Below, piece by piece: positions 38,414 through 56,846 of a stretch of DNA of 64,000 bases. The stretch's first letter is position 1. Each line of letters starts with the position of its first letter. Source of the stretch: Flavobacteriales bacterium (GTDB taxonomy: Bacteria > Bacteroidota > Bacteroidia > Flavobacteriales_F > PHOS-HE28); assembly GCA_044226515.1 (NCBI GenBank), contig JBGAGX010000001.1, forward strand, positions 19,321-83,320, read 5' to 3'. The notes beneath the pieces were generated by a model that did no database searches, was not told where the DNA came from, and saw nothing but the letters and a program-made list of their open reading frames with translations. Made by a program: the position numbers and the translations under genes.

Positions 38414-39073
38414 TCACCGGGCGATGAACAAGCGGTTCAAGCCTTCATAACCCTGTTCATCCACCTGTCCGAAGCGAAGACGCAGTTCGGACCCGATACG
38501 TCCACTGAGACCCCGGGTGGCCTCGTTGTGGACGATCGTATTGAAGATCAGCGTGCCACCGGTGGAGGTGCGTGCCCGCAGGGCGTCCTGGAAGTCCGGA
38601 TCCGCGGCCCAGCCGGGCGGCGATAGGTCCTCGAAGAGGTCCACCAGCACCAGGTCGAAGGTCCCTTCCAGGGTCTTGACCGAACGGCGGGCATCGCCCT
38701 CCACGATCCGCAGGTCGGCCCAGTCATCGATACCGAAGTGGCGGCGCCCCCAATCCAGCATCAAGGGGTCGTCCTCCAGCGCGGTGATGGGGGCGGAGAG
38801 GCCACGTTCCTTCCGCAGGATGTGCACGGCGCTTCCGGTGCCCAGGCCGAGCAGCAGCACCGCGCGCACGGCGCCGTCGGTGGGCATGAAGTGGTCCAGG
38901 GCCTGCTGCCACACGCGGTGCAGGCTGCCGAAGCTCTGGTTGGCCTGCGCGCTGTTCACCACCAGGCGCCCGCGTTCGAGCGTGAGCTCAAGGTGGCCAT
39001 GCCGGCCCTCGGCCCTTTCCAGCCGGATCGGTACCACATGGCTCAGCAGGCGGAGCAGGGGGGAGGCCTTCAC
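38414..39073 (-). CDS. spermidine-synthase-like class I methyltransferase-fold protein
   Basis: …AVLLLGLGTGSAVHIL…DLVLVDLF is a Rossmann GxGxG plus acidic-loop pattern resembling PABS/spermine-synthase-like proteins. Confidence 0.6.
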   Translation of the reverse strand: MKASPLLRLLSHVVPIRLERAEGRHGHLELTLERGRLVVNSAQANQSFGSLHRVWQQALDHFMPTDGAVRAVLLLGLGTGSAVHILRKERGLSAPITALEDDPLMLDWGRRHFGIDDWADLRIVEGDARRSVKTLEGTFDLVLVDLFEDLSPPGWAADPDFQDALRARTSTGGTLIFNTIVHNEATRGLSGRIGSELRLRFGQVDEQGYEGLNRLFIAR

Positions 39074-39118
39074 GGGGCGAAGATCGCCTGTCGGGCGCGC
39101 TACCTTCGCGCCCTTTCC

Positions 39119-40165
39119 ATGGCCCTCACCGCCATCACCCGGTACAAGCTGCGCAAGCTGCTGAAGTACGTGCTCGTGACCACCGGCACGGCCTGGGTGC
39201 TCACGCTCTTCAGCGGCGATGCCTTGCGCGGCTGGCTCGGCGCGTGGGCCCTGCTCGGGCTGTGGACCGGTGTGCTCGAGGAGTTCCTCTTCGGCCGGCG
39301 CTTCCGGTCGCTCGCCATCCCGCTGCAGTTCCTGGGCAAGGTGATCGCGGTGAACGCCCTCACCATCCTCTTCGTGGCCCTGGCCTTCGCCTCCGACAGC
39401 CAGCAGCAGCTCCCGTTGATGCGCGAAGGCACCTTCAGCGCGGGCGAGATGCTGGCCATGGCGCAGTTCTATCGCCTCATCCTGCGGGTGGTGGTGGTCA
39501 CCTCCATCGCCATCCTAGTGGTGCAGGTGGAGGAGCTCATGGGCCGCCGCATGTTCCTCGGCTTCCTGCTCGGCCGGTACGAACGTCCGGCGGCGGAGGA
39601 GCGCATCGTGCTCTCCATCGACCTGGTGGGTAGCACCGCCCTAGCCGAGAAGCTCGGCGACCTGCGCTACTACCGCTTCCTCAACACCACCTACTCCCTG
39701 CTCACCGATCCGCTGCTGCGCAACGAGGGCGAGATCCACAAGTACGTGGGCGATGAGGTCATCATCACCTGGACCATGGAGGACGGTATCCGGCAGCAGA
39801 ACTGCCTGGACCTGTTCTTCGACCTGCGCGAGCGCATCGCCGCCCATGCCGAGGTGCTGCAGGCCGAGTTCGGGGTGGTGCCCCAGTTCCGCGGGGCCGT
39901 GCACGGGGGGCGGGTGATCGTGGCGCAGGTGGGGCACATCAAGCGCGCCATCGACCTCAGCGGCGACGTGATGAACGCCACCTCGCGCATGGTGGGCGTG
40001 TGCAAGGAGCTCAAGGGTGAACTGCTGGTGAGCGCTGAACTGCTCGGCCGCATCCCGCAGGCGGAGCAGCGCTTCCGCTTCGGTGAACTGGTCGTGGCCC
40101 CCGTGAAGGGCCGCCGACGCGAGGTGCGCGTCCATACCGTGGAACGCCTTTCCCGCACCAACTAG
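39119..40165 (+). CDS. membrane-anchored class III adenylate/guanylate cyclase (6-TM N-terminus plus CYCc domain), paralogue 1
   Basis: Met128 of ORF 38738..40165. Transmembrane region followed by VLSIDLVGSTALAEKLGD…KYVGDEVIITW…DLSGDVMNATSRM, which are cyclase-homology-domain motifs including the metal-binding Asp residues. Confidence 0.8.
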   Translation: MALTAITRYKLRKLLKYVLVTTGTAWVLTLFSGDALRGWLGAWALLGLWTGVLEEFLFGRRFRSLAIPLQFLGKVIAVNALTILFVALAFASDSQQQLPLMREGTFSAGEMLAMAQFYRLILRVVVVTSIAILVVQVEELMGRRMFLGFLLGRYERPAAEERIVLSIDLVGSTALAEKLGDLRYYRFLNTTYSLLTDPLLRNEGEIHKYVGDEVIITWTMEDGIRQQNCLDLFFDLRERIAAHAEVLQAEFGVVPQFRGAVHGGRVIVAQVGHIKRAIDLSGDVMNATSRMVGVCKELKGELLVSAELLGRIPQAEQRFRFGELVVAPVKGRRREVRVHTVERLSRTN

Positions 40166-40229
40166 GTCCAGGACAACGCGGTCGCGCGCGCCCACCTCCC
40201 GGCTTCCCGCGTCATCCTAGCTTCGTGGC

Positions 40230-41327
40230 ATGAAGCGATCGCTGCTCCTTGCCGCGCTGCTCGCCGGCGCCGTGGGGAACGGATCGGCGCAAGGGTTGGC
40301 GCCCTTCACCACCGCCACCGGGCGACTCGTGCTCTTCGATCACGGCCGGTTCCTGGAGGTCGACGAGCGCGAGCCCATGGACCTTGCGCTCACCGGCGAA
40401 GGCCTGCTGTTCGTGGACCATGCCGGCGCCCTGCACAGCGTGGACCAGGATCAGCTGCGCCTGCTCGATCCGGGCCCGGGTGTGCGGCTGATCAACGGGG
40501 GGGCCTTCGGCGCCTGGGCCGTGGGGAACACGCTGAAGGTGGCGGGGCCCGAAGGCGTGCGCACACTTTCCACCGATGCCTTCCTGATCACCGCCAGCGA
40601 CAGCCTGATGGCCTGGGTGGACACCACCCACCACGCCTTGATGACCTGGTGGCGGGGTCGCCTGATCACAACCGCCGTGGTGAACGGGCTTCCAGTGCAG
40701 GCCCCTTGGACCCAAGGCGGCAACACGCTGCTCTTCCACGACCGATCGGCCCACCGGGTATCGATGCTGTACCGGGGACATGTGCAGGTGCTCTTCGACA
40801 GCACCGATATCGCCGAGGTGGCCGCCGGCACCGACCTGGCCGGTTATTGGGACGATCGCCGCGGGGTGTTCCGCGCATGGGACCGCGGCCGCAGGAAGGA
40901 CCTGGAGCCGCTGCGACCGCGCTCCTTCCAGGCCGCGGACGGACTTCTGGCGTACGTGGCCAACGGAGGAGCGTTCAAGTGCTACCGCAATGGGCAGGTG
41001 CACCGGTTGCTCGACCATGCGCCCACCGAGCTTTTCGTGCGCGACAGCCTGGTGGTCTTCGTGGACGGGGGGCGTCTGCTGGTTGAGCACGAAGGCGTGG
41101 CCGAGGTGGTGGAGCCCTACGTGCCCGAGCAGTGGCACGTGGACGGCGGCGTGCTCACCTACCTTGATCTGGACCGTGGTATCCGACGCTGGTCGGCGGG
41201 GAAGCGCACGGTGATCGCCGAAGGCATGGCGGGCCGCCGGTTCGAGGCCTGGGGCGATGTGGTGCTGTGGCGCACACCGGACGGGCTGGTGCGCTGCTGG
41301 TGGAACGGCCGCGTGTTCGAGTTCTGA
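40230..41327 (+). CDS. secreted repeat protein, probable beta-propeller
   Basis: Signal peptide MKRSLLLAALLAGAVGNGSAQ followed by about 8 repeats of ~40 aa of the form (L/V)L(F/Y)(V/H)D..G.L…..G….(L/V). Confidence 0.65.
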   Translation: MKRSLLLAALLAGAVGNGSAQGLAPFTTATGRLVLFDHGRFLEVDEREPMDLALTGEGLLFVDHAGALHSVDQDQLRLLDPGPGVRLINGGAFGAWAVGNTLKVAGPEGVRTLSTDAFLITASDSLMAWVDTTHHALMTWWRGRLITTAVVNGLPVQAPWTQGGNTLLFHDRSAHRVSMLYRGHVQVLFDSTDIAEVAAGTDLAGYWDDRRGVFRAWDRGRRKDLEPLRPRSFQAADGLLAYVANGGAFKCYRNGQVHRLLDHAPTELFVRDSLVVFVDGGRLLVEHEGVAEVVEPYVPEQWHVDGGVLTYLDLDRGIRRWSAGKRTVIAEGMAGRRFEAWGDVVLWRTPDGLVRCWWNGRVFEF

Positions 41328-41331
41328 CCCT

Positions 41332-42411
41332 TCAGCGCGTGGCGGTCTGCTCGCCGGCCCGCGGTTCGATCGTCCAAAGGCTCACCTCGTTGCGCTTGCC
41401 CTTCAAGGGGATGTGCCCGATGTGGCGCCTGCCGTAGAGGTGGTCCGGGAGCCGCAACAGGTCCAGTAGTTCCTTCGACAACAGGTTGTCCACGCCGTGG
41501 TCGTTGCAGCTGTTCTGGATGCGGGCCGCGGTGTTCACCACATCGCCCGAGAAAATGGTCTCCTTCTTCACCAGGCCCACCTCACCGGTGGTGACCTCGC
41601 CGTAGTGGAACCCGGCCTTGAACTGCGGCACCAGCCCGTAGCGCGCCCGGTAATGGTCGGCCCGCTGCTCAAGCTTCCTGCGGATGGCGAAGAAGCACCG
41701 CACGCAGCGCTGTCCCTTGATCCCTTTGCGCAATTGCCAGCTCACGCTCACCTCATCGCCCACGTACTGGTACACCTCCCCTTCGGAGTACACCACCGGG
41801 TCCGTGATGTCCGCGTACACGTCGTTCAGCAGCTCGAAATAGCGTACGTGACCCAGCTCTTCGGCGATGGTGGTGCTCGACCGCATGTCGAGGAACATGA
41901 AGATGCGCAGCTCCTGCCGGGGCTTGTAGTAACGGCCGAGCAGGAAGCCCACACCGCCGCTGCCGTACTGGTCGTTCAGGCGCACCATGAGCATGGTGCC
42001 GCCCATCATCAGCCCGTAGTAGAGGAACTGTCCGAGCTGTTGCAGGGTAAGGAAGCGGGCGAGAAAGGTGGGTGCGAAGGGCGCGCTGCTTGCGGCGGCC
42101 GGCACCACGGCATGGGTGAAGACCACGGTCGGCAGCACCAGGGCGCTCATCACCCCGAAGGCCTGGAGGAAGGGCAGGCCCCGCAGGCGGTCGCGCAGGA
42201 GGAAGATGTAGATGCCACCGCCGACGAGCCCCCCGAGCAGCGAACGCCAGAAATACAGGTTCACCTGGTCCATCAGGGGGCGGGCCACCCCGTTGGCGGT
42301 GAGCACGTTGTTCTCGAGCACGGCGGCCACAAGGCCAGTGCCCACCCAGGCGAGGGCAATGCGCAGGGTGCGCCGGGTACGGCGGCGGTATTTCTCCAGG
42401 TCGCGGATCAT
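41332..42411 (-). CDS. membrane-anchored class III adenylate/guanylate cyclase, paralogue 2
   Basis: Met88 of ORF 41332..42672 (MIRDLEKYRRRTRRTL…). Transmembrane N-terminus, then IFMFLDMRSSTTIAEELG…QYVGDEVSVSW…FSGDVVNTAARIQ. Confidence 0.8.
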   Translation of the reverse strand: MIRDLEKYRRRTRRTLRIALAWVGTGLVAAVLENNVLTANGVARPLMDQVNLYFWRSLLGGLVGGGIYIFLLRDRLRGLPFLQAFGVMSALVLPTVVFTHAVVPAAASSAPFAPTFLARFLTLQQLGQFLYYGLMMGGTMLMVRLNDQYGSGGVGFLLGRYYKPRQELRIFMFLDMRSSTTIAEELGHVRYFELLNDVYADITDPVVYSEGEVYQYVGDEVSVSWQLRKGIKGQRCVRCFFAIRRKLEQRADHYRARYGLVPQFKAGFHYGEVTTGEVGLVKKETIFSGDVVNTAARIQNSCNDHGVDNLLSKELLDLLRLPDHLYGRRHIGHIPLKGKRNEVSLWTIEPRAGEQTATR

Positions 42412-42469
42412 GCGGCTTTGCGGCGGTGTTCGCACCGGCATCGCGGGTGGCCAAAGATAGTCGGGGCCA

Positions 42470-42829
42470 TCAGCGGGCCCGGTCCGCCGCACGGCGCCTG
42501 CGCGGCAGGACGGCCAGGTAGTACCACGCCACGCACACCAGACCGAGCACGAAGAACACCGTGGCGAACGGCCGGGTGCCGTCGTGGGCGAAGAACTCGC
42601 CCAGCATCCACACCGAATTGGCGCAGATCCAGCACACCACGGCCAGGCTGTGCAGGAACTCCCCGGTCTCATCCCGGCTGCGCCAGGCGATCCAGATCGC
42701 CATGAGCACGGTGGGCGCGATCATCAGGGTGCCCAGCACCTGCAGGTCCTGCACCCAGCATAGGTCCTTGAACAGCCACAGCACGATGTGGAAGTTCTCG
42801 CTGGCGCGGAGGGAGGGTAGGGCACGCAT
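42470..42829 (-). CDS. small 3-4 TM membrane protein upstream of cyclase 2
   Basis: Met156 of ORF 42470..43294 (MRALPSLRASENFHIVLWLF…). The remainder of that ORF is low-complexity antisense of the neighbouring gene. Confidence 0.45.
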   Translation of the reverse strand: MRALPSLRASENFHIVLWLFKDLCWVQDLQVLGTLMIAPTVLMAIWIAWRSRDETGEFLHSLAVVCWICANSVWMLGEFFAHDGTRPFATVFFVLGLVCVAWYYLAVLPRRRRAADRAR

Positions 42830-42937: not shown

Positions 42938-43561
42938 ATGCGGCCCGTCGTCCTCCTCTTGTTGATCCTTCTTGCCTGGCCTGTCGCGAAGGCCCAGAAG
43001 GCGCCACAGCGGTTCCACGTGAAGCTGCATGGCGTGGTCACCGACCATTTCAGCGGCGACCCGGTGAAGGGTGCCCTGGTGCGCCTGCTGAAGGCAGGCC
43101 GCTTCGAGGCCGAGGTGGTGACCCGTGGCGACGGCCGGTACGAGTTCGAACTGGAGCGCGGCTGGCGGTATTCGGTGTGGTACAGCAAGGACGGTTGCGT
43201 CACCAAGCACGTGAACATCGATACCGAGGAGGTGCCGGTGTACCCCGATGTGCCGTTCTACGACATGGACGTACAGGTGAGCCTTTTCGAGCACATCGAG
43301 GATTTCGACTTCAGCGTGTTCCAGCAGCCGCTCGGTGAGGCCTCGTACAAGAAGAGCGTGCGGAACGTGAGCTGGGACCTGGAGTACACCGAGCGCATGC
43401 GCCCGCGGTTGGCCCAGGTGATGGACGAGTACGAGAAGACGTACAACGGGTACTACAAGCGCCGCGCCGGCCGTCGACCGGCCAAGGAACGCTTCAACGT
43501 GCCCGATTCCGCCTCGCGCACGGGGGAGGTGCCTGCACCGGCCCCGCCCGCGGAGAATTGA
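42938..43561 (+). CDS. secreted CarboxypepD_reg-like (transthyretin-fold) domain protein, family member A
   Basis: Signal peptide MRPVVLLLLILLAWPVAKAQ. CarboxypepD_reg-like core VKLHGVVTDHFSGDPVKGALVRLL…GDGRYEFELERGWRYSVWYSKDG, followed by the conserved tail …FDFSVFQQPLGEASYKKSVRNVSWDLEY…. Confidence 0.7.
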   Translation: MRPVVLLLLILLAWPVAKAQKAPQRFHVKLHGVVTDHFSGDPVKGALVRLLKAGRFEAEVVTRGDGRYEFELERGWRYSVWYSKDGCVTKHVNIDTEEVPVYPDVPFYDMDVQVSLFEHIEDFDFSVFQQPLGEASYKKSVRNVSWDLEYTERMRPRLAQVMDEYEKTYNGYYKRRAGRRPAKERFNVPDSASRTGEVPAPAPPAEN

Positions 43562-43586
43562 ACCGTGCGCGCCACGGCCATCGCGT

Positions 43587-44417
43587 TCAGCTCCGGTACC
43601 GGTCCACGAGCTTCACGGCTTCCACGGCCTCCTTCACGTCGTGCACGCGCAGCACGGCCGCCCCGTTCAGCAGGGCGATGGTGTTGAGCACGGTTGTGCC
43701 GTTGAGCGCATCGGCCGCGGTGATGCCGAGCACCTCGTTGATCATGCGCTTGCGCGAAAGGCCCACGAGCACCGGCTGCCCCAGGGCGGTGATGCGCGGC
43801 AGTTCGCGAAGCAGGGCGAAGTTGTGGTCCGTGGTCTTGCCGAAGCCGAAGCCCGGGTCGAGCCACACATCGGCGATGCCGGCCGCCCGGCAGGCGTTCA
43901 AGCGACCGCTCAGGAAAAGCGTGATCTCCGCGGCCACATCGGCGTAGTGCGGCGCCTGTTGCATGGTGGCCGGTGTGCCCTGCATGTGCATGGCGATGTA
44001 AGGCACGTGCAGCGAGGCCACCTTGGGCAGCATGTCCGCATCCAGCAGCCCCGCACCGATGTCGTTCACCAGGCCGGCCCCGGCGGCCACCGCCTCGCAC
44101 GCCACCTGTGCGCGCCAGGTGTCCACGCTGATCAAGGCCTCGGGAAAGCGCGCGTGCACGGCCGCGATCACGGGCACCACGCGGCGCAGTTCCTCCGTGG
44201 GGTCCACCACCGCCGAGCCGGGCCGCGAGCTCGCCCCGCCGATGTCGAGCAAGGCTGCGCCTTCCTCCAGCATGCGTTCCGCCAGGCGCAGGGCGCCATC
44301 CACGGCCACACGGCTTGCACCATGGAACGAGTCAGGCGTGGCGTTCAGGATGCCCATCACCAGCGGCGCGTGGCGCTCCACGAGGCGGTCCTTGATGCGC
44401 AGGGTGAGGGTCGGCAT
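43587..44417 (-). CDS. folP: dihydropteroate synthase
   Basis: Met11 of ORF 43587..44447 (MPTLTLRIKDRLVERHAPLVMGILNATPDSFHGAS…DIGGASSRPG…), the pterin-binding domain. Confidence 0.9.
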   Translation of the reverse strand: MPTLTLRIKDRLVERHAPLVMGILNATPDSFHGASRVAVDGALRLAERMLEEGAALLDIGGASSRPGSAVVDPTEELRRVVPVIAAVHARFPEALISVDTWRAQVACEAVAAGAGLVNDIGAGLLDADMLPKVASLHVPYIAMHMQGTPATMQQAPHYADVAAEITLFLSGRLNACRAAGIADVWLDPGFGFGKTTDHNFALLRELPRITALGQPVLVGLSRKRMINEVLGITAADALNGTTVLNTIALLNGAAVLRVHDVKEAVEAVKLVDRYRS

Positions 44418-44446
44418 GGTGTGATGCGGAACGCGAAATTCGCACA

Positions 44447-45838
44447 ATGCTCCGGGTGTGGCGCCTGCTCCTCCTGCTTGTCGTGGTCATCCCGCACGAG
44501 GTCCGGGCCATCCGGGTGGAGGGCTTCGTGCGCGACGGGTTCACACGGCTTCCCCTGCGCGGGGCGGTCGTCACCTTGGAACGGACCGATGCGGTCCCCA
44601 TGCAGGCGGTCACGCGCATTGACGGCCACTATCGGTTCGAGCTGCACGCAGGCCAGCGCGCGGTGATCCGGTTCGCGTCGAAGGACATGGTGCCGCGGTA
44701 TGTGGTCTTCGATGCCTCCGACGTGCCCAGGGAATGGACGGACGCCTTGGAAGCGAGGTTGGACATGCGGCTCTTTCCGTCCATGGAAGGCCTGGACAGC
44801 TCGCTGGTGGACGCTCCGGCGGGCCTGTGCAGGTGGAACGAGGCAGAGGAGAACCTGGCATGGGACATGGACCGGTCGGCACCCTTGGTCGAGCGTTGGG
44901 AAACCTTGGCGGAGGCACATTTGATGGACTATCCGGAACAGCGGCCCTCGGACCTGCAACGCTGGATGTCCAAGGGCTTCGACCTGGTGTCGGAATGGGC
45001 CCTGTTCGTGTCCTTTGCGCTGATCGGCTTGTTGTACACCGTCCTCGACCGGGCGGTCCGTCGGTTGGGCAGAAGCCTGCGTCTGCTCATGTTGTTGGCT
45101 GTGTTGCTGGGCTCCATCGCCCTGGTGGTCGACCTCGCGGCGGCGGCCGGACCCTTGCGCTTCCTGGCCTTTTTCGGATCAATGAGCGCGGTCCTTTCCG
45201 GTGTGCTGTTGTTGGTGGAACTCTTGGTGGGTCCGACCACTCTGGAGCATGCGATAGGGATGGATGAGGATCCTCTTGCTGAAGAGGACATGATGGACGA
45301 GGAGCCCGGACCCACCTCCGGGTCACGATGGGCGACGTGGTGGCCGATCGTCGTCTTCTTCGTGGTCCTGTTCGCGCTGATGTTCGAAGGCATGATGGGG
45401 CTCGAGAACACGTTGGAGGTTCAGCGCCTGATGGGCATGGGGGCGGCTGTGGGTCTGGCGGCGGCGGCCGTGGTGGCTTGGATCCGTTCGCCCAAGGTGG
45501 TGCGCTCATCCACGCGCCTGGTCATCTGGGCCGGTGGCATCTGGTGGTTCGTCCTGCCCATTCTGGGCGTCGCCTCGGCCTCCTTCCTCAACCGCTCGTT
45601 CATGGAAGAGGTGGAGCAGTGCCGGGTATGGCCGGTGGTGGAGGTGTATGATGGGGGAAAGGGCATCCAGGTGTGGGTGGCGATCAACGGGGAGCGCGAG
45701 CGTCTGGAGATGGACCGCGCGATCAAGGAGCGGCTTACCTCGCTCGACAGCCTGCGCTGTTGCGTGCACCGTGGTGCCTTGGGGTTCGACTTCGTGGAAC
45801 GGGTGGAGCCGGTGATCACAACCCTCGGTCCGCGCTGA
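44447..45838 (+). CDS. CarboxypepD_reg-like domain protein with C-terminal multi-TM region, family member B
   Basis: Start MLRVWRLLLLLVVVIPHEVRAIRVEGFVRDGFTRLPLRGAVVTLERTD…GHYRFELHAGQRAVIRFASKDM, then the conserved tail LCRWNEAEENLAWDMD, then 6-8 hydrophobic helices. Confidence 0.7.
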   Translation: MLRVWRLLLLLVVVIPHEVRAIRVEGFVRDGFTRLPLRGAVVTLERTDAVPMQAVTRIDGHYRFELHAGQRAVIRFASKDMVPRYVVFDASDVPREWTDALEARLDMRLFPSMEGLDSSLVDAPAGLCRWNEAEENLAWDMDRSAPLVERWETLAEAHLMDYPEQRPSDLQRWMSKGFDLVSEWALFVSFALIGLLYTVLDRAVRRLGRSLRLLMLLAVLLGSIALVVDLAAAAGPLRFLAFFGSMSAVLSGVLLLVELLVGPTTLEHAIGMDEDPLAEEDMMDEEPGPTSGSRWATWWPIVVFFVVLFALMFEGMMGLENTLEVQRLMGMGAAVGLAAAAVVAWIRSPKVVRSSTRLVIWAGGIWWFVLPILGVASASFLNRSFMEEVEQCRVWPVVEVYDGGKGIQVWVAINGERERLEMDRAIKERLTSLDSLRCCVHRGALGFDFVERVEPVITTLGPR

Positions 45839-45858
45839 GGTCGTTCCTTTGCGCTCGC

Positions 45859-46401
45859 ATGGAACGTACCCTGGCACAATACGATGCGGTGATCGCCGAG
45901 TGCATGGCGCTCTTCAGCAAGAAGGCGCACGACTACGGCACGGCCTGGCGCATCCTGCGGGTGCCCTCCCTCACGGACCAGATCCTCATCAAGGCCCAGC
46001 GCATCCGTACGCTGCAGACGGTGGGGGAGAGCAAGGTGGGTGAAGGCATCCGCCCGGAGCTCATCGGCATCATCAACTACGCGGCCATGGCGCTCGTGCA
46101 GCTGGAACTGGGGGTGGTGGACGCACCTGACATGGATGCCACCGCCGCCTCCGAGAAGGTCCGGGCCGCCCTGCAGCAGGCGCGCGACCTCATGCTGCGC
46201 AAGAACCACGACTACGGCGAGGCCTGGCGCAGCATGCGCGTGAGCTCCCTGGTGGACCTCATCCTCATGAAGCTGCTGCGCATCAAGCAGATCGAGGACA
46301 ACGCCGGGGCCACCCTCGTGAGCGAGGGCATCGACGCCAACTTCCTGGACATCGTCAACTACGGCGTGTTCGCCATGATCCGCATGGAGGAGGGCGCGTG
46401 A
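45859..46401 (+). CDS. DUF1599 domain protein
   Basis: Met63 of ORF 45673..46401. Duplicated motif HDYG(T/E)AWR…(L/V)(T/V)D(Q/L)IL(I/M)K…RI. This family commonly sits near folP and tpiA in Bacteroidetes (from memory). Confidence 0.75.
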   Translation: MERTLAQYDAVIAECMALFSKKAHDYGTAWRILRVPSLTDQILIKAQRIRTLQTVGESKVGEGIRPELIGIINYAAMALVQLELGVVDAPDMDATAASEKVRAALQQARDLMLRKNHDYGEAWRSMRVSSLVDLILMKLLRIKQIEDNAGATLVSEGIDANFLDIVNYGVFAMIRMEEGA

Positions 46402-46408
46402 GCGGCGC

Positions 46409-46939
46409 TTATTCCAGCCACTTGAACGAGCCCATGATCGCCTCGGCGAGGAAGAGCATCTCGTCCCAGCTGCCCTCCTCGGCCGTGAAGGTGAGGAGGT
46501 AGGCCTTGCCTTCGCGGATCCGCACCACCTGCTTCCAATGCATGGCGCGGCCTGACAGTTCGCCCGTGTACTCGAACTGGTGCATCTCGCCCGTGATGTC
46601 GCGCGTGGCGCTGGACGTGATCATGGTGCCCTTGGCCAGCTGCTGGCCCACCTGGGCCTCGGTGGCGGTCGCGTACTCGGTGAGGCTCACGCCCGGAGCG
46701 TCCTGCACCAGCAGGTTCACGTTCTCGCTGAACAGGTCGCCACTGTCCAAGGGGCTCAGGAAGATCACCGCGGCACCACGTTCGCCGCTCTCATCAACCG
46801 TCCATTCGACCGGATGCGCCAGGCTCACGCCGGCACCACGCCAGGTGGCCCAGGCCGGTTGCTTGCCGCCCGAGGACTGGGCGTGCGCGTTGAAGGTGAG
46901 CAGGCCAAGGGCCAGGGTCAGGAGCACGGGTCGGAGCAT
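46409..46939 (-). CDS. hypothetical secreted protein (PsbP/DcrB-like beta-sandwich suspected)
   Basis: Signal peptide MLRPVLLTLALGLLTFNAHAQ. No firm motif was recognised. Confidence 0.6.
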   Translation of the reverse strand: MLRPVLLTLALGLLTFNAHAQSSGGKQPAWATWRGAGVSLAHPVEWTVDESGERGAAVIFLSPLDSGDLFSENVNLLVQDAPGVSLTEYATATEAQVGQQLAKGTMITSSATRDITGEMHQFEYTGELSGRAMHWKQVVRIREGKAYLLTFTAEEGSWDEMLFLAEAIMGSFKWLE

Positions 46940-46959
46940 GGCGGGAGCGTTCGCAGCGA

Positions 46960-47063
46960 AGATCGCGGATCGCGGCGAACGGGAAACAGATCGCCCCGGC
47001 TATTCACATCGACCTGTTGATCGATCCCCGCCGGATCGCCGTCCCGGCGCTTTGATCCCGATC
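46960..47063. promoter_or_regulatory. GATC-dense repeat cluster (8 GATC, 4 copies of GATCGC[CG]) in the divergent intergenic region upstream of family member C
   Basis: Read directly: gaaGATCGCGGATCGCGgcg…caGATCGCCcc…gttGATCGATCcccgccgGATCGCCgtc…tttGATCccGATCGgcg. About 0.3 GATC would be expected by chance in 100 bp at this composition. Confidence 0.35.
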
Positions 47064-47086
47064 GGCGCGCGGATACGTTTGCCGCC

Positions 47087-47620
47087 ATGTTGAAGGCCTT
47101 GATCGTGGCGGGTTCGGTGTGCCTCCAGGTGCAGGCGGCCGCCTTCAGCTTGAGCATTTCGGGCGTGGTCACCGACTACCTCACGGGCAAGGCCATGGAC
47201 CATGTGCTGGTGCGCGTCTACAAGGACGGGTTGAAGGTGCAGACCCTGGAGACCGGTGCCTCCGGCCAATACGACGTGCACCTGGCGAACAACGCCGAGT
47301 ACGTGATCCGCTTCAGCGCACCGGGGCTCGTCACCAAGTGCTTCACCGTGGATACGCATGGGTTGGAATGGGAGGGCGACCGCAAGGAGAAGGACCTGTG
47401 GGTGGGTATGACGATGATGGAGCGCACCATCGGCCTCGACCTCTCCGTGTTCGACATGCCCATGGGCATGGCCCGTTTCGAACCGGCCACCGGGCTCGTT
47501 ACCTGGGACCTCGATTACGACCGGAAGGTCCGCCCGCAGGTGGAGGACCTCATGGCACGCTACCAACGCTTGATGACCGCACAGGCCAGCGTCTCCACCG
47601 CACGGGAGGCCCGGCCCTGA
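47087..47620 (+). CDS. secreted CarboxypepD_reg-like domain protein, family member C
   Basis: Start MLKALIVAGSVCLQVQAAAFSLSISGVVTDYLTGKAMDHVLVRVYKDG…SGQYDVHLANNAEYVIRFSAPGL, then the tail …LSVFDMPMGMARFEPATGLVTWDLDYDRKVRP…. Confidence 0.7.
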   Translation: MLKALIVAGSVCLQVQAAAFSLSISGVVTDYLTGKAMDHVLVRVYKDGLKVQTLETGASGQYDVHLANNAEYVIRFSAPGLVTKCFTVDTHGLEWEGDRKEKDLWVGMTMMERTIGLDLSVFDMPMGMARFEPATGLVTWDLDYDRKVRPQVEDLMARYQRLMTAQASVSTAREARP

Positions 47621-47776: not shown

Positions 47777-49144
47777 ATGCGTTATCTGCTCATCCTCTGC
47801 CGCGTCCTTGTGGGCGCCACCTTCATCGTCAGCGGCCTGGTGAAGGCCAACGACCCGCTCGGCTTCAGCTACAAGCTGGAGGAGTACTTCGCCGAGAGCG
47901 CGCTGAACTGGCCGGCGCTCGAGCCGTGGTCGCTCACCCTCGCCATCCTGGCCTGCCTGGGCGAGATCGTGCTGGGCTTCGCGATCCTGGTGGGCGGCCG
48001 CATGCGCCTGGCCACCACCGCCACACTGGCGCTCACCCTCTTCTTCGGCTGGCTCACCGCCTACACCGACCAGTGCAACCAGCGCCAGAAGGCCGGTGAG
48101 AAGATGACCTACACCGTGGTGGAGAACGGGGTGGAGGTGGAGCACGACAAGACCTGCGTCACCGACTGCGGCTGCTTCGGTGATGCCATGAAGGGCTCCA
48201 TCGGCCGCAGCCTCACCCCGCGCGAGAGCTTCTACAAGGACCTCATCCTGTTCATCTTCCTGCTGCCCGTGTTCATCGCCAGCTGGCGCAAGCCCGGCAT
48301 CGGGTTCAACACCGCGGCCGAGGACCGGTGGCTGCTCGGACTCGGGGCCGTGGCGGTGGCCATCTGGAGCTGGGTCTTCGGCTGGAGCTTCTACCTCCTG
48401 TTCACGGCCGTGGGCATGGCCGGCTACCTGGTGATCAAGCGCATGGTGCAGGGCGTGAAGGGCGAGTGGGTCACCGCCGGCTGGGTCACCGTGCTCAGCG
48501 GCCTCTTCATGTGGTACTGCCTCAACCACCTGCCCATGAAGGACTACCGCCCCTTCGCCATCGGCAAGAGCATCCCGGAGGGCATGGCCGTTCCGCCCGG
48601 CGAGAAGCCCGATGTGTACGAGACCGTGCTCACCTACAAGAACATGAAGACCGGTGAGATGAAGGACTTTTCCAGCGCCGACTACCCCTGGCAGGACAGC
48701 ACCTGGGTGTGGCAGGCCACCGAGAACAAGCTCGTGCAGGAAGGGTACCACCCGCCAATCCACGATTTCGTGCTCACCGACAAGGACGGTGTCGATGTGA
48801 CGGAGGGTATTCTCGCCGAGCCTACGCCGGTGGTGCTGGTGGTGAGCAAGGACATCACGGAAGCATCAGGTGCATGCCAGCCGGCGATCAACACCCTCGC
48901 TGACGCCGCCTTCAAGAACGGTTGGTATGTCTATGGCGTCACCGCCAGTGGCTACGAGCAGATCGAGGAGTTCCGCCACACGCACCAGAACCCCTTCGAC
49001 TACCTGCGCTGCGACGGCACCGTGCTCAAGACCATCATCCGCAGCAACCCCGGCATCGTGCTGCTGCAGCAGGGCACCGTGCGCGGCCAGTGGCACTGCA
49101 ACGATGTGCCCGCGCTGGAGGAGGCGAAGGGGGCGTTGAAGTAG
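47777..49144 (+). CDS. DoxX-family membrane domain fused to C-terminal thioredoxin-like (TlpA-like) domain protein
   Basis: Met50 of ORF 47630..49144 begins MRYLLILCRVLVGATFIVSGLVKANDPLGF (DoxX-like helices). The C-terminal soluble domain carries Cys pairs (CVTDCGCFGD). Confidence 0.7.
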   Translation: MRYLLILCRVLVGATFIVSGLVKANDPLGFSYKLEEYFAESALNWPALEPWSLTLAILACLGEIVLGFAILVGGRMRLATTATLALTLFFGWLTAYTDQCNQRQKAGEKMTYTVVENGVEVEHDKTCVTDCGCFGDAMKGSIGRSLTPRESFYKDLILFIFLLPVFIASWRKPGIGFNTAAEDRWLLGLGAVAVAIWSWVFGWSFYLLFTAVGMAGYLVIKRMVQGVKGEWVTAGWVTVLSGLFMWYCLNHLPMKDYRPFAIGKSIPEGMAVPPGEKPDVYETVLTYKNMKTGEMKDFSSADYPWQDSTWVWQATENKLVQEGYHPPIHDFVLTDKDGVDVTEGILAEPTPVVLVVSKDITEASGACQPAINTLADAAFKNGWYVYGVTASGYEQIEEFRHTHQNPFDYLRCDGTVLKTIIRSNPGIVLLQQGTVRGQWHCNDVPALEEAKGALK

Positions 49145-49294: not shown

Positions 49295-49993
49295 CTATTC
49301 ATGCTGAATATCATCATGAGCGCAGGACACCCGGTTAGGGGATGTGCGGGAGTTTAGGGAAGCGCATTGGTTCAAGCGAGGCTGAAGGAACCATAAGCCG
49401 AACGGGAAGAATGCTGCGATCAACACCGCATCGACCCAGATCGGAAGAGCAGTCCTTTTGCTTAGGTCGAAAGCGCGTAGGGAGTTGGCCGTTGGGATCA
49501 GGACCCGCAAGCACCACACAATGGCCAACAGGAAGAGTGGTGCGATGAAGTTGAAGTCTGGCGATGGTCGGTCTTTCCGAAGCCAAAGGGAGGCGCACAC
49601 AAACATGGTCAGCATCATTACCGAGGTCAATCGGGTGCGACTTGCCTTATGCCCGGTGGCCAAGACAGCGTCGAACCAGATGCCAAGACAGATGTAAAGA
49701 ATGATCGCTGGTGCAGGAGAGTCTACGAAGGACATTGTCCATCCGAGAATTTGTCTGGCTAGAATGTACAGTGGGTATCCAACGAGGCATATCGAGCACG
49801 TCACGACAAGGAATGCTTGCCAGTGCTTTAGCGCAAAGACAACTCTATGAGTTTGCGCTATTGCTGTCCAACCAGCACTAGGGTTTGCCGATTGCCCATT
49901 CCCTTCTCGGTCTCCGATCACGCCGCTTTTCTTCACCCCCCGAACATAAGCAAAGGCCCTTGCTGTCAGTTGATCACGATCCCCTGTTAGCAC
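49295..49993 (-). CDS. hypothetical 5-TM membrane protein encoded in a low-GC (~52%) island
   Basis: 232-aa ORF with five hydrophobic helices (FLVVTCSICLVGYPLYIL, IILYICLGIWFDAVLA, VMMLTMFVCASLWL, IAPLFLLAIVWCLRVLIP, LPIWVDAVLIAAFFPFGLWFL). Its composition differs markedly from the flanking CDS at ~68-70% GC. No family was recognised. Confidence 0.5.
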   Translation of the reverse strand: MLTGDRDQLTARAFAYVRGVKKSGVIGDREGNGQSANPSAGWTAIAQTHRVVFALKHWQAFLVVTCSICLVGYPLYILARQILGWTMSFVDSPAPAIILYICLGIWFDAVLATGHKASRTRLTSVMMLTMFVCASLWLRKDRPSPDFNFIAPLFLLAIVWCLRVLIPTANSLRAFDLSKRTALPIWVDAVLIAAFFPFGLWFLQPRLNQCASLNSRTSPNRVSCAHDDIQHE

Positions 49994-50076: not shown

Positions 50077-50838
50077 ATGCGAACGATCGTGGCCGGGAAT
50101 TGGAAGATGCACAAGGACAAGGCGGAAGCTCTGGCCTTGCTGGATGAGTTGGTGAAGGCGAACGCGGGGCAGCCTGGCGGTGTGGAGGTCATCGTGTCGC
50201 CGCCCTTTCCTTTTCTGGACCTGGCGGTCCGCACCGTGAAGGGTTCAGGGATCCAGGTGGCGGCGCAGAACTGCCACGCCGCCGCGCAAGGCGCCTACAC
50301 CGGCGAGGTAAGCGTGCTGATGCTGAAGAGCATCGGTGTCTCCCATTGCATCGTAGGGCACAGTGAGCGGCGTCAGTACTTCGGCGAGAACGATGTTCAG
50401 GTGGCCGAGAAGTTGAAGGCACTGCTCTTCCACGGCCTTACGCCCATCTACTGCTGCGGCGAGAAGCTGGACGAGCGCGAGGCCGGTCACTACTTCCGGG
50501 TGGTGGAGGCGCAGATGAAGGATGCGCTGGACGGTCTTTCCGCGGAGGAGCTGGTCCGCTGCATCATCGCCTACGAACCGGTGTGGGCCATCGGCACCGG
50601 GCGCACGGCAAGCGCCGAACAGGCGCAGGAGATGCACGCCTTCATCCGTGAATACCTCACTGGCCGCGGAACGCCCGAAGTGCCCATCCTCTACGGCGGC
50701 AGCTGCAAGCCCGACAACGCCGCATCGCTCTTCGCCTGTCCCGATGTGAACGGAGGTCTCATCGGCGGTGCCGCCCTGGATGCCGCCCAGTTCACCGCCC
50801 TCATCCGCATCGCCCGCGAAGCCAAGCACGGTTCCTGA
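50077..50838 (+). CDS. tpiA: triosephosphate isomerase
   Basis: MRTIVAGNWKMHK…IVGHSERRQYF…AYEPVWAIGTG contains the catalytic Lys, His and Glu motifs. Confidence 0.95.
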   Translation: MRTIVAGNWKMHKDKAEALALLDELVKANAGQPGGVEVIVSPPFPFLDLAVRTVKGSGIQVAAQNCHAAAQGAYTGEVSVLMLKSIGVSHCIVGHSERRQYFGENDVQVAEKLKALLFHGLTPIYCCGEKLDEREAGHYFRVVEAQMKDALDGLSAEELVRCIIAYEPVWAIGTGRTASAEQAQEMHAFIREYLTGRGTPEVPILYGGSCKPDNAASLFACPDVNGGLIGGAALDAAQFTALIRIAREAKHGS

Positions 50839-50883: not shown

Positions 50884-51723
50884 ATGAACTACACCGAGGT
50901 CGACTTCCTCATCGCCCCGCTCGAACCCTGGCGCGACGTGCTGATGGCGGAGCTGGGCGAGCTGGGGTATGACAGCTTCGAGGAGACCACCGGCGGGCTG
51001 AAGGCCTACATCCTCAGCGAGCGCTTCGACCGCACGGTGCTGCCTGAGCTGCTCACCCTCCGCGACCCCCATGCCAGCGTTAGCTACACCGTGCGCGCCA
51101 TGGAGCCGCGGAACTGGAACGCGGAGTGGGAGCGGAGCTTCACACCGGTGGAAGTGGGTCGGGAGGTGCGGATCAGGGCCGAGTTCCACGCATCGGAGCC
51201 GGGATTCCGGCACGAGCTGGTGATCACCCCGCGCATGGCCTTCGGCACAGGCCACCACGCCACCACCCGCATGATGGTGCAGGCCATGCTGGGCCTCGAC
51301 CTGAAGGGGCAGGCCGTGTGCGACCTGGGCTGTGGGACGGCCGTTCTTGCGGTACTGGCCGAGAAGCTCGGGGCCACCGAGGTGCTGGCCATCGACATCG
51401 ACGCGCTGGCCGTGGAGAACGCGGAGCTGAACGTGGGGCTGAACGGTTGTCATGCCATCACTGTGGAAAAGGGCACCGTGGCCGCCCTGAAGGGCCGCAG
51501 GTACGGCACTATTTTGGCGAACATCGAGCGCAACACGCTGATGCGCGACATGGAGGCCATGCGCGATGCGCTGCTCCCCGGTGGCGCGCTGCTGTTGAGC
51601 GGATTCGTGGTGGACGACCGCCACATGATGGTGCAGAGCGCGAAGCAGGCCGGGCTGCTCGTGGAGGAACGCTTGAACGAAGGCGAATGGGCCCTGATCG
51701 GATGCCGAAGACCACATCCCTGA
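50884..51723 (+). CDS. prmA: ribosomal protein L11 methyltransferase
   Basis: …GTGHHATTRMM…VCDLGCGTAVLAV…; SAM-binding motif, 279 aa. Confidence 0.9.
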   Translation: MNYTEVDFLIAPLEPWRDVLMAELGELGYDSFEETTGGLKAYILSERFDRTVLPELLTLRDPHASVSYTVRAMEPRNWNAEWERSFTPVEVGREVRIRAEFHASEPGFRHELVITPRMAFGTGHHATTRMMVQAMLGLDLKGQAVCDLGCGTAVLAVLAEKLGATEVLAIDIDALAVENAELNVGLNGCHAITVEKGTVAALKGRRYGTILANIERNTLMRDMEAMRDALLPGGALLLSGFVVDDRHMMVQSAKQAGLLVEERLNEGEWALIGCRRPHP

Positions 51724-54700
51724 TCCACCTGGCGGTACGCGTCGGCGCCGCCCTGCTGCTCTCCGCGTTCGCGCTCGCCGCGCAGGCGCAGGTGAAGACC
51801 TTCACCGACGACCAGGCCGTTTTCCTGGAGGAGGTGACCACGTTCCTGGTGGAGGCGGACAAGAAGGAGGGCAAGCCCTTCGTGGAGCAGGTGTTCGCCC
51901 CGGCATGGGGCGGAACCTACCTCACGGTGGCCCAGCGCACCAAGGTGGTGGAGATGGCCAACTTCATGCTCAAGAAGCGGTACGAGGCCTTTCCGCACTT
52001 CCGCGACTACCTCGCCGCCGTGGCCGCCTTCGTGAACAGCGGCAGGCCGGCGGCCGAGTTCGACACCTGGATGCGCAGCCTGGACGCCATGGTGCAGAGC
52101 GGACGGAAGAAGAACTTCACCGCCTTCATCGAGATGTGCGCGGGGCTGTTCACCGACAACACCCTGTACAAGAGCGCGAGCACCCGCTGGCGCAGCAGTT
52201 CGGGCACCTTCACCTTCGCCTTCGACAGTGTGCCCAAGGTCGTGTTCGACAAGCTCGACCTCGTTTGCCTGGCCAAGGGCGACAGCGCCGTGATCCGCAA
52301 CACCTCGGGCGTGTATTACCCCGTTGAGGAGATCTGGCGCGGCAAGGGCGGACGCGTGGACTGGCGCCGTGCGGGCCGCAAGCCCGAGTCGACCTTCGCC
52401 GAGTGGGAGCACGGCTACACCGTGAAGCTGAAGAGCGCCGCCTTCGAGGTCGATTCGGTGCGCTTCGCCGATCCCTACTTCGACCGCACCTTGTTCGGCA
52501 AGGTGAGCGACAAGGTGCTCGCCAACGTGGACGAGGACAACGCGAGCTACCCGCGCTTCGAGGGCTACGACCGCCGCATGAGGATCCGCGACATCGTGGA
52601 GGGCATCGACTTCGAGGGCGGCTTCACCATGCAGGGCGCCAAGTTGCAGGGCTACGGCACCAAGGAGGAGCCCGCCTTCCTCACCTTCTACCGCGAGAAA
52701 CGCCCCTTCATCGTCACCCGGGGCCTGCTCTACACCATCGAGCCCGAACGCATCAGCAGCCAGGACGTGGCCGTCACCATCCGCCTGGACAAGGACTCGC
52801 TCTGGCACCCCAGCGTAAGCCTCCGGTTCCTGCAGGACAAGCGCCAGCTCAGCCTCATCAAGAAGGACGAGGGCCTGTCGAAGGGACCCTACTACGACAC
52901 CTACCACAACCTCGACATGTACTTCGAGGTGCTCAAGTGGAAGCAGGGCGACCCGCTGGTGGAGCTCGGCAACCTGCAGGGCAGCTCGCAGACACGCGCC
53001 TCCTTCGAGAGCTACAACTACTTCAAGGAGAAGCGCTACAACGCCATGCTCGGGGTGGACGCGGTGCACCCGCTGGTGCGGCTTCGCGATCACCAGAAGG
53101 CCCATGGCGACGTGTTCACCGCCACGGACTTCGCCGTCTCCACACGCTTGCAGAAGCCCCAGGTGATCCCCATGCTGATCGACATGGCCAACAAGGGCTA
53201 CATCGATTACGACCTGGAGACCGAGGTGGTGACGGTGAAGCCCCGCCTCAAGGAGCATGTGCTGGCCAGCGCCGGCAAGGTGGACTACGACGTGCTGCAG
53301 TTCAACAGCAACAGCGAGGATGGCGTGAACGGCACCATCAACCTGCTCAACAACGACCTGGCGCTGAAGGGCGTGGCGCGCATCGTGCTGAGCGATTCGC
53401 AGGACGTGAAGATCTTCCCCAAGGACGAGCTCGTCACCATCAAGAAGGACCGCGATTTCAGCTTCGGTGGCATGGTGAAGGCCGGCAAGCTCACCTACTA
53501 CGGCAAGGAGTACTACTTCCACTACCAGCCTTTCGTGATCGACCTGCTCAACGTGGACAGCGTGGGCTTCCTGGCCGACAGTTTCGACAAGGACGAGAAC
53601 GGCCTCTCGCACCTGGTGCGCGTGAAGAACGTGCTGGAGAAGGTGACGGGCACCCTGGAGATCGACGCGCCCAGCAACAAGAGCGGCCTGCAACAGGAGA
53701 AGTACCCGCAATTCCCCAAGTTCAACAGCACCCAGGAGAGCTACGTGTTCTACGACCGCGGGGCCATCCAGAAGGGCGTGTACATCCGCGACAAGTTCTA
53801 CTACAAGAGCGATCCCTTCCAGATCGACAGCCTCGACAACTTCACCAACGACGGCCTCACGTTCACGGGCACGCTGGTGTCCGCCGGCATATTCCCCGAC
53901 ATCCGAGAACCGTTGCGGCTGCAGAAAGATTACGCCCTCGGCTTCGAGCGTCCCACCGGGGCCGGCGGCATGCCGCTCTACGGGCGCAAGGCCACCTTCA
54001 CCAACACCATCAGCCTCAACTACAAGGGGCTGCAGGGCGATGGGGACATGAGCTACCTCACCACGCTCGCGTCCAGCACCAACTTCGTCTTCTGCCCCGA
54101 CAGCACCTTCGGCATCGCAGACACCCTGTACAACCTCAGTGCGAAGGCCCCCCAGCTCAACGTGCCCAACGTGAACTGTGCACGGCTCTTCACCCGCCTG
54201 GAGCCCCGCAACGACCTGCTGCTGGCCGAGAAGCGTGAGCGGCCCATGACCATGTACGACGGCCAGGCCTACCTGCACGGCCGCACCGAGCTCTCCCCCA
54301 AGGGCATGACCGGCGCCGGCCTGGTGGACTTCACCAACGCCACGCTCGCCTCCAAGCTGTTCCAGTTCGAGACGGTGCGCATCCATGCGGACACCTCCGA
54401 CTTCCGCCTCACCGAAGGGGACACCGCGAGCATCGCGTTCAAGACCGACAACGTGAACGCCACCGTGAAGCTCGACGAGCGCGTGGGCGAGTTCGTGAGC
54501 AACGGCACCGAGACCAAGGTGGAGTTCCCCGTGAACCAGTACATCTGCTTCATGGACCGCTTCAAGTGGTTCATGGACCAGGGCGACATCGAGCTGGAGA
54601 GCGACCGCACCGCGGCCGTGGGCAACGAGGACCTGCAGCTGTCCGGATCGAACTTCATCAGCATCCGGCCCGACCAGGACTCGCTCAGCTTCATGGCGCC

Positions 54701-56168: not shown

Positions 56169-56171
56169 ACC

Positions 56172-56846
56172 ATGGACTTCCCCTGGGTGTACGGTGCTCT
56201 CGGCATGATCGCGGCCTACCTCTGCGGCAGCATCCCCACCAGCGTATGGTGGGGGCGGGCGTTCCACGGTGTGGACGTGCGCGAGCACGGCAGCCGGAAC
56301 GCGGGCGCCACCAACACCTTCCGGGTGCTGGGCGCCCGGGCCGGTGTGCCGGTGCTGCTCATCGACATCCTCAAGGGCTTCGTGCCGGTCCGTCTCATCC
56401 CCAACTGGAGCGGCCTCGAGCCCGACAGTGGTCCGTGGATGTGGTTCCGCGTGGCGCTCGTGCTGGCCACGGTGCTGGGCCACCTGTACCCTGTGTTCGC
56501 CGGCTTCAAGGGCGGCAAGGGCGTGGCCACCTCCTTCGGGGGCATCCTGGCGGTGCATCCGGGCGCGGCCGTGATCTGCGTGCTCGTGTTCACCGCGGTC
56601 TTCGCGCTGTCGCGTTTCGTTTCGCTCGGATCGCTCAGCGCGGCGCTGGCCTTCCCGCTGGCCGTGGTGCTCATCTACCACGAGAGCAGCCCCGTGAAGG
56701 TCGGCTTCGCCGCCGTGCTCTGCGCCCTGGTGTTCTACACCCACCGCCAGAACATCGGACGCCTGTGGAGGGGGGAGGAGAACCGGATGAGCCTGTCGGG
56801 ACCCCGCACCGCGGGGCCGCGCGATGGGACCCATGAAACCGCCTGA
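56172..56846 (+). CDS. plsY: glycerol-3-phosphate acyltransferase PlsY
   Basis: GSIPTSVWWGRAFHGVDVREHGSRNAGATN…GGKGVAT matches the PlsY signature. Confidence 0.9.
   Translation: MDFPWVYGALGMIAAYLCGSIPTSVWWGRAFHGVDVREHGSRNAGATNTFRVLGARAGVPVLLIDILKGFVPVRLIPNWSGLEPDSGPWMWFRVALVLATVLGHLYPVFAGFKGGKGVATSFGGILAVHPGAAVICVLVFTAVFALSRFVSLGSLSAALAFPLAVVLIYHESSPVKVGFAAVLCALVFYTHRQNIGRLWRGEENRMSLSGPRTAGPRDGTHETA

Follow-up and report, generated by a model that had tools for sequence, protein, structure and literature searches.

Three related exported proteins interspersed with folP and DUF1599

This analysis concerns a family of exported proteins encoded by three genes, here called A, B and C, within a stretch of 64,000 nucleotides (nt) of DNA from a Flavobacteriales bacterium (GenBank assembly GCA_044226515.1, contig JBGAGX010000001.1, positions 19,321 to 83,320), to which we refer in full as the window and from whose first letter all positions are counted. 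The window has a G+C content of ~66% and the three genes lie on its plus strand at 42938-43561 (A, 207 amino acids (aa)), 44447-45838 (B, 463 aa) and 47087-47620 (C, 177 aa). Interspersed with them are folP (dihydropteroate synthase, 43587-44417, minus strand, Pfam Pterin_bind 6e-73), which is convergent with A and divergent from B, a DUF1599 gene (45859-46401, plus strand, PF07659 2.6e-59) starting 20 nt past the stop codon of B, and a gene for a PsbP-like exported protein (46409-46939, minus strand, Pfam PsbP 3.2e-9) between DUF1599 and C. A sequence-only reading of this DNA had described the family as interleaved with folP, DUF1599 and tpiA, and the Pfam matches bear this out for folP and DUF1599, as does the sequence for the gap of only 29 nt that it had reported between the divergent starts of folP (ATG at 44417) and B (ATG at 44447). 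The gene tpiA however lies at 50077-50838 on the plus strand, 2.4 kb past C, and the place of the third interleaved gene is taken by that for the PsbP-like protein.

The three open reading frames (ORFs) are where that reading had put them. Their G+C content at third codon positions (GC3) is 0.84-0.89 (0.875 for A and 0.893 for C), in line with the neighbouring genes, which indicates that they are read in the true coding frame, and the same proteins are predicted in a public NCBI Flavobacteriales assembly, where P0001, P0078 and P0105 are identical to A, B and C. Each has an N-terminal hydrophobic signal segment followed by a CarboxypepD_reg-like core corresponding to PF13620 at about residues 25-95, with A (35.4 bits) above the Pfam gathering cut-off of 32.3 bits and C (31.6 bits) and B (22.5 bits) below it. 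Pairwise BLASTP comparisons are significant over the full length of the proteins (A-C 6e-25, with 30% identity over 163 aa; A-B 2e-16; C-B 2e-9) and also for their ~60-aa tails on their own (A-C 2e-14, A-B 2e-7), so that the similarity extends beyond the generic core. The tail has the motif D(F/L/S)S..(F/V)..P.G.A...(10-12 aa)...WD(L/M)(E/D), much as had been described, and no Pfam or NCBIfam model covers this extension. Searches of NCBIfam, PADLOC and PHROGs returned nothing for A, B or C, and PADLOC nothing for their neighbours either. A hidden Markov model (HMM) of the family scores the three proteins at 165-253 bits and, run over the six reading frames of the window, found no copy besides them. 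Judged by these alignments A, B and C are true, ancient paralogues, and copies that share 25-30% identity reflect an old expansion rather than a recent duplication in this genome.

The signal peptides of A and C are of the cleavable type. No cysteine is conserved in the signal regions of the A-type or C-type alignments that could form a lipobox; the signal peptide of C has a cysteine of its own (..GSVC..) that is not conserved in its orthologues. Nor did A, B or C give a Pfam match, at E values up to 1, to the C-terminal sorting domains (Por_Secre_tail, CHU_C) of the T9SS (type IX secretion system). Given a signal peptide, no conserved lipobox cysteine and no T9SS domain, we infer that A and C are soluble periplasmic proteins.

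Fold and conserved residues of the module

Using an AlphaFold2 model of A built from a 24-sequence alignment (mean predicted local distance difference test (pLDDT) score 87.7) we delimited the shared module to aa 27-169 (43016-43444, plus strand) on the basis of the predicted secondary structure and alignment A1. A signal peptide of aa 1-19, ending in ..VAKA with Q as the next residue, forms a helix that is followed in the model by a seven-strand transthyretin-like sandwich (aa 27-116), a short helix (126-129), a beta-hairpin (134-146) that ends at an invariant W146-D, and a long helix (148-169). Beyond the module A continues into a basic disordered tail (GYYKRRAGRRPAK...) while C consists of the signal peptide and the module and nothing more. 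The sandwich fold is seen in the AlphaFold2 models of both A and B and in the Foldseek matches 5aq0, 1qmu and 3e8v; Foldseek searches of the PDB and BFVD returned only generic transthyretin-like, Cna-B-like and intradiol-dioxygenase-like sandwiches with a query-normalised template modelling score (TM-score) of at most 0.37. Alignment A1 contains six residues that are invariant across the subfamilies (G32, G66, Y68, L72, D95 and W146) and a further set that is nearly so (V34, T35, G54, T62, Y78, K90, D124, F128, P131, G133, A135 and Y150). The conserved glycine, tyrosine and leucine positions, of the pattern G..G.Y..L, resemble what we take to be core motifs of the generic fold. K90, D95 and the residues from D124 to Y150 appear to be specific to the A/B/C family. 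As modelled, the module is a CarboxypepD_reg sandwich with a family-specific extension made up of a helix, a WD hairpin and a long helix.

The description of B as carrying a polytopic membrane C-terminus agrees with six predicted membrane helices after its module. A signal peptide precedes the module (aa 22-161) of B, which is followed by six membrane helices (aa 178-376) and, C-terminally, a beta domain (aa 390-456), and in the AlphaFold2 model of the protein (pLDDT 81) the same head and long helix run into the membrane domain (44978-45574, plus strand), which was defined from the model, hydropathy and loop charge. Loops rich in lysine and arginine (197-212 and 347-357) share one side of the membrane, which was placed as cytoplasmic, with a disordered acidic loop (258-300). 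This follows the positive-inside rule and puts both the module and the C-terminal domain on the predicted periplasmic side, together with the conserved polar motifs GPLR (235-238), E314, GLENT (318-322) and N382-R383. The C-terminal beta domain (45614-45814, plus strand) has three cysteines, C392, C438 and C439, that are invariant in alignment A4, and we propose that it would be a disulfide-type periplasmic domain. Neither it nor the membrane part matched a Pfam or NCBIfam model or a fold in the PDB.

The module in other protein architectures

An exhaustive profile search returned very many generic CarboxypepD_reg repeat proteins that align with the core only (profile positions ~23-85). Matches that span the tail as well define a narrower family which, besides proteins of 170-230 aa, includes four further types. 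One consists of long proteins (1150-1400 aa) in which an N-terminal module leads into some 20 TPR-like repeats and a charged coiled coil, and whose C-terminus is a conserved domain of ~70 aa ('YPQGVTEE..'), with P0285, P0309 and P0324 as examples; another of this type, P0352 (1351 aa), comes from the same metagenome-assembled genome (MAG) as the related locus L006. In a second type (P0327, P0330, P0347 and P0344) the module is present two, three or five times, three times in the case of P0347. P0234, which sits in an ordinary cellular context, combines an N-terminal module with six further CarboxypepD_reg repeats and a C-terminal SPOR-like domain. Lastly, at least six clusters of proteins of 295-372 aa join an A-type module through a linker to one SPOR-like domain. 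Carriers of the SPOR-like domain are P0245, P0077, P0249, P0275, P0292, P0303 and P0234, and in some relatives the partner domain is OmpA. A, B and C themselves gave no Pfam match to SPOR. In a neighbour-joining tree of the modules A, C and B separate from one another and from a group formed by A' (an additional copy found in some related loci) and the long type, and the SPOR fusions are the sister of A.

The genes for the long-type proteins P0352 (L081:6783-12056) and P0347 (914 aa, L105:5803-9745) are each divergent from a gene for a DAO-family FAD oxidoreductase, in distant genomes with G+C contents of 64% and 32% respectively, and the latter contig has gldF/gldG-like ABC genes and dnaN nearby.

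Every fusion gene of the A-type module and a SPOR-like domain that could be placed sits on a viral-looking contig (L082:9001-9963, L083:9001-9909, L084:3245-4153, L104:3563-4681, L086:3271-4173 and L085:345-1265). L083 and L084 encode a head-maturation protease (PHROG 6e-41), a head-tail adaptor and a T4 gp13-like protein alongside RtcB, a class-I aminoacyl-tRNA synthetase, Macro, an ADP-ribosylglycohydrolase and many small unannotated ORFs. L082, part of a 115-kb contig, is similarly arranged, with phosphoesterases, an endonuclease and a fragment that resembles a terminase; L104 carries Macro, ligase, RimK and DnaJ genes, and L086 and L087 contain runs of small ORFs. RtcB, an aminoacyl-tRNA synthetase, Macro, a ligase and numerous small ORFs were noted for L082 and L104. 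G+C content across the fusion-bearing contigs ranges from 33 to 66%, a spread that suggests repeated or long-standing carriage. The fusions matched no family in PHROGs, a tblastn search of GenBank phages with the fusion P0245 found nothing, and of 42 pattern matches to the A-type alignment A2 in IMG/VR none was confirmed.

The SPOR-like part of these proteins is close to that of a cellular protein in the window, a 2077-aa protein (56846-63079, plus strand) containing TPR repeats, a propeller and two SPOR-like domains at aa 1817-1898 and 1943-2068 (62294-63049, plus strand). The C-terminal 126 residues of the fusion share 63% identity (1e-49) with the last domain of this giant protein and 38% with the penultimate one, and among the listed fusions identity to the giant C-terminus reaches 65%. 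The Pfam SPOR model matches the giant protein at 0.017 and a PDB sequence search with its C-terminus alone gave no match; profile A5, which comprises eight such domains, has the CwlC SPOR structure 1x60 as its top PDB match (E 0.02) and three of its eight members match Pfam SPOR (best 2.9e-6). The identification of the shared C-terminal domain as SPOR is thus moderately supported by these profiles. The fusion argues that the module and the giant protein may share a location on peptidoglycan. What we had least expected is that the module occurs on phage-like contigs fused to a host-like SPOR domain; we found no literature that deals with the module together with SPOR, nor newer work on the N-terminal extension (NTE) of SusC.

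The sequence-only reading had also proposed that A, B and C are homologous to an internal module of the giant protein, whose CarboxypepD_reg-like segment at about aa 384-461 (57995-58228, plus strand) it regarded as a fourth copy. This did not hold up. BLASTP comparisons with the segment gave E values of 0.31, 0.65 and 2.3, and the family HMM scored the giant protein at 4.3 bits (E 0.6, over 26 residues) as against 165-253 bits for the three family members. An hhalign comparison of the family with the single segment gave a probability of 6%, rising to 29% (E 6e-4) when 12 orthologous segments from metagenome contigs were included, with an alignment that starts halfway through the sandwich, reaches an 'FDxPL' motif and does not include the WD hairpin. 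At best the segment would show a remote CarboxypepD_reg-like relatedness at the level of the fold, not paralogy.

The N-terminus of the giant protein is laid out like PorE/CHU_0125, with TPR repeats, a PD40 propeller and a CarboxypepD_reg-like domain, and the NCBIfam PorE/CHU_0125 families match its propeller and CarboxypepD_reg-like part; instead of OmpA_C it has ~1300 aa of coiled coil and low-complexity sequence and the two SPOR-like domains. Its orthologues in metagenomes (L088-L100) are 38-88% identical to it. Directly upstream, at ~51.7-56.2 kb, a plus-strand gene (GC3 0.89) encodes an exported protein of ~1480 aa without a Pfam match. A minus-strand ORF of 1794 aa at 51450-56834 was rejected as a shadow ORF, its G+C by codon position being 0.92/0.40/0.61.

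Conservation of the locus among Flavobacteriales

A pattern-based scan of one genome per GTDB species with the A-type alignment A2 found relatives of A in 98 species-level genomes of uncultured Flavobacteriales, and synteny was counted in 80 fetched loci from Flavobacteriales MAGs (98 matched). Clustering at 90% identity gave 77 clusters of orthologues for A, 27 for B and 99 for C, with identities to the window protein of ~40-77%; the few orthologues whose names carry a taxon belong to Flavobacteriales or Bacteroidota MAGs, and the G+C content of the host clade is 54-69%. The gene order cyclase, propeller, cyclase, small membrane protein, A, folP, DUF1599, BT_3928 is kept in nearly all 80 loci, within which B, the PsbP-like gene and C are optional or variable elements and the number of module copies varies from one to four. 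An extra copy, A', occupies the interval from A to folP in 11 of 73 loci, B is found between folP and DUF1599 in 11/72, and C between DUF1599 and BT_3928 in 49/61. Some loci have double-module ORFs or a further copy past BT_3928, and all of the modules (162/162) are on the same strand. That each paralogue keeps its own orthologue group, like the conserved synteny, speaks for purifying selection and for age. The folP-DUF1599 loci of relatives do carry such modules, with variable occupancy. The earlier description of a lineage-specific expanded module stands, as the members form their own orthologue groups and reach one to four copies per locus. The module also occurs beyond the locus, in long proteins, in tandem arrays and on phage-like contigs. 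On this distribution the family is an old, clade-specific expansion with gains and losses of members. We propose that the placement among folP, DUF1599 and BT_3928 reflects a conserved neighbourhood of the clade and is no pointer to a role in folate metabolism.

In the window the upstream part of this neighbourhood comprises a membrane adenylate/guanylate cyclase (38738-40165, plus strand), an exported 10-blade beta-propeller protein (40230-41327, plus strand, PF21734 5e-43), a second membrane class-III cyclase (41332 to ~42378, minus strand) and a small membrane protein of ~119 aa (42470-42829, minus strand, GC3 0.93) for which family searches gave no match. The small membrane protein gene is divergent from A and the pair is kept in this arrangement in most related loci; the whole block from the first cyclase to the small membrane protein (38738-42829) adjoins A in most of the 80. 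Upstream of the block, at 32921-38392 on the minus strand, lies a gene for an 1823-aa T9SS cargo protein that combines PKD, Filamin and chitinase-N-like repeats with a type IX secretion signal of the CHU_C type; its presence shows that the organism has a T9SS.

Downstream, C precedes by ~156 nt the gene for a BT_3928-family DoxX/thioredoxin-like membrane protein (47777-49144, plus strand, NCBIfam NF045576 1.4e-111), and prmA (50884-51723, plus strand) follows tpiA. Between BT_3928 and tpiA there is a compositionally odd minus-strand ORF of 232 aa (49295-49993), with a GC3 of 0.58 compared with 0.82-0.93 in its neighbours, a local G+C content that falls to 0.60 and no match in family searches; it may have been inserted from a foreign source or may not be coding at all.

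Scanning the window with Rfam and for tRNAs gave no match, no sigma-70 promoter site turned up, and terminator-like sites were no more frequent than expected by chance. The sequence TACGTTTG at 47074-47081 is an exact Bacteroidota -7 box (TAnnTTTG) that ends 5 nt before the ATG of C, and the box has 4 occurrences in the window, which is not above chance. If used it would imply a leaderless or very short-leader mRNA for C, which we regard as only a hint.

Possible function of the module

Across these proteins the head is constant and the part past its long helix changes, which suggests that the head is a docking domain and that the various anchors position it. Both these anchors and the signals for export would place the head in the periplasm, and the SPOR and OmpA partners of its relatives point to the cell wall or envelope. 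The function of the family probably concerns the cell envelope, and from the domain architectures we infer a binding function with an envelope- or peptidoglycan-associated target. The reading that we put forward, tentatively and as a possibility rather than a probability, is that the module is a docking head which this bacterium makes in soluble (A and C) and inner-membrane-anchored (B) periplasmic forms. The head would dock onto a conserved component of the cell envelope and whatever follows the long helix would decide where it is held. With nothing past that helix A and C would be the soluble forms, whereas B would be anchored by its six-helix inner-membrane domain and its disulfide-type periplasmic beta domain; in relatives elsewhere the mount would be a long TPR/coiled-coil stalk, and in the phage-borne and some cellular relatives the anchor would be a SPOR-like peptidoglycan-binding domain.

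Several points weigh against a docking role. Structure searches give only generic beta-sandwich matches at query-normalised TM-scores no higher than 0.37, and A, B and C themselves have no peptidoglycan-binding domain. The periplasmic site of A and C is deduced only from their signal peptides and the missing T9SS signal. Most of the SPOR fusions are phage-borne and their purpose may differ from that of the host proteins, and the conserved polar face of the membrane domain of B could serve a transport or enzymatic role that is unrelated to tethering. Furthermore the CarboxypepD_reg-like domain of PorE is dispensable for the known function of that protein (PMC12773672), which indicates that such domains can be mere spacers.

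That last observation favours a reading in which the module is an inert Ig-like periplasmic spacer or filler that has no specific partner and A and C are remnants of larger proteins kept for bulk or for structural reasons, as do the generic nature of the fold and the occurrence of the module in long repeat arrays. However A and C, which amount to the module alone, are kept at 45-77% identity over dozens of species, the invariant D95 and W146 and the near-invariant K90, D124, F128, P131, G133 and Y150 lie outside the generic core, and phages have acquired and kept the module, so that we consider a spacer unlikely. A low probability also attaches to the idea that the host proteins are envelope components which phages use or neutralise and that the fusions are mimics that displace them, for instance in superinfection exclusion, lysis timing or interference with division. 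It would account for A-sister modules being fused to SPOR-like domains on phage-like contigs of 33-66% G+C and for the variable copy number of the module in the host locus, but neither PADLOC nor PHROGs produced a match, none was found in IMG/VR or GenBank phages as searched, and the host locus lies among housekeeping genes in very stable synteny, unlike a defence island. The suggestion made from the sequence that the small proteins bind and regulate the giant protein (56846-63079) or its partners is favoured by the presence of the genes in the same 20-kb region, by the weak remote similarity to the giant CarboxypepD_reg-like segment and by phage fusions that join an A-type module to a domain 63% identical to the last SPOR-like domain of the giant protein. 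We find it rather improbable, as BLASTP and the family HMM detect no significant homology, the fusion argues for co-localisation on peptidoglycan and not for binding, and the fetched loci stop short of the giant gene.

Strong conservation of gene order, and the position of B 20 nt upstream of DUF1599 and of C ~156 nt upstream of BT_3928, could be taken to mean that A, B and C work with their gene neighbours, namely folP, DUF1599, the BT_3928 redox protein and the upstream cyclase and propeller genes. This appears very unlikely given that folP and DUF1599 are cytoplasmic and the module is exported, that B and C are missing from many loci that keep folP, DUF1599 and BT_3928 (B being present in 11/72 and C in 49/61), and that relatives of the module occur in unrelated contexts. 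An enzymatic module, akin to the intradiol dioxygenases or hydroxyisourate hydrolases with which it would share an extended sandwich, has next to no likelihood. Foldseek does align 150-180 columns with catechol 1,2-dioxygenases at E ~1e-5, but at a root-mean-square deviation of 6-9 A and a TM-score of ~0.35, and alignment A1 shows no invariant or near-invariant histidine and no conserved tyrosine shown to match the 2-His/2-Tyr iron site. A dioxygenase-like enzyme was rejected on account of the missing conserved histidine.

The docking reading can be extended to the phages, although we regard the extended version as speculative and not likely to be right. In it the module would be a dedicated envelope-targeting head in a clade of Flavobacteriales and in their phages alike: the host would have soluble, membrane-anchored and stalk-mounted heads at the wall or division site together with the giant SPOR protein, and phages would have captured an A-type head and welded it to the SPOR domain with which the host itself binds septal peptidoglycan. 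With this fusion they would block or disrupt that site, be it to exclude superinfecting phages or to control division and lysis, for instance.

Should the module be a specific docking domain, the combination of sandwich, WD-hairpin and helix would be an unannotated family that deserves a model of its own, and if true this reading would help to approach the periplasmic domains of CarboxypepD_reg-like type in Bacteroidota, those of the SusC NTE and PorE among them. As a natural experiment the phage fusions point to the site of action of the module, and they could bring to light a new means by which phages manipulate the Bacteroidota envelope. If it is only a spacer, A, B and C would be an ordinary lineage-specific family of hypothetical proteins.

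Comparison with known systems

The defining features of the family match no described family beyond the fold. A close likeness is to PF13620, which shares a clan with PF13715 and DUF1416: A, B and C have its seven-strand core, A passes its cut-off, C and B fall below it, and the best fold matches include 5aq0. They differ from it in adding a conserved extension of ~55 aa, while generic repeat proteins match only profile positions ~23-85. On PF13715 A and C score below the cut-off.

In Bacteroidota PorE pairs a periplasmic CarboxypepD_reg-like domain with a peptidoglycan binder (PMC7192894, PMC12773672), and relatives of the module show a comparable pairing of such a domain with a peptidoglycan-binding one; PorE, like the related N-terminal domain of SusC (PMC7782687), serves as a precedent for the docking reading. 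A, B and C however lack the TPR repeats, propeller and OmpA_C of PorE/CHU_0125, and A and C have no lipobox, unlike the lipoprotein PorE. Membership of the PorE family is not supported, A scoring 10.2 bits on T9SS_PorE through its CarboxypepD_reg-like part only, against NCBIfam cut-offs of 600 and 620 bits for the PorE/CHU_0125 families.

The NTE of SusC is likewise a small periplasmic Bacteroidota domain of the same fold, with 9hfj among the Foldseek matches, and its deletion abolished transporter function and growth on levan (PMC7782687). It is however part of an outer-membrane barrel protein, in which it precedes the TonB box, while A and C are free-standing and carry the tail extension. 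SPOR-domain division proteins such as FtsN, DamX, DedD, RlpA and CwlC provide the remaining comparison. A, B and C differ from them in having no SPOR domain, but the relatives of A on phage-like contigs and the cellular P0234 end, as these proteins do, in a SPOR-like domain, and SPOR domains bind denuded septal glycan (PMC6895207).

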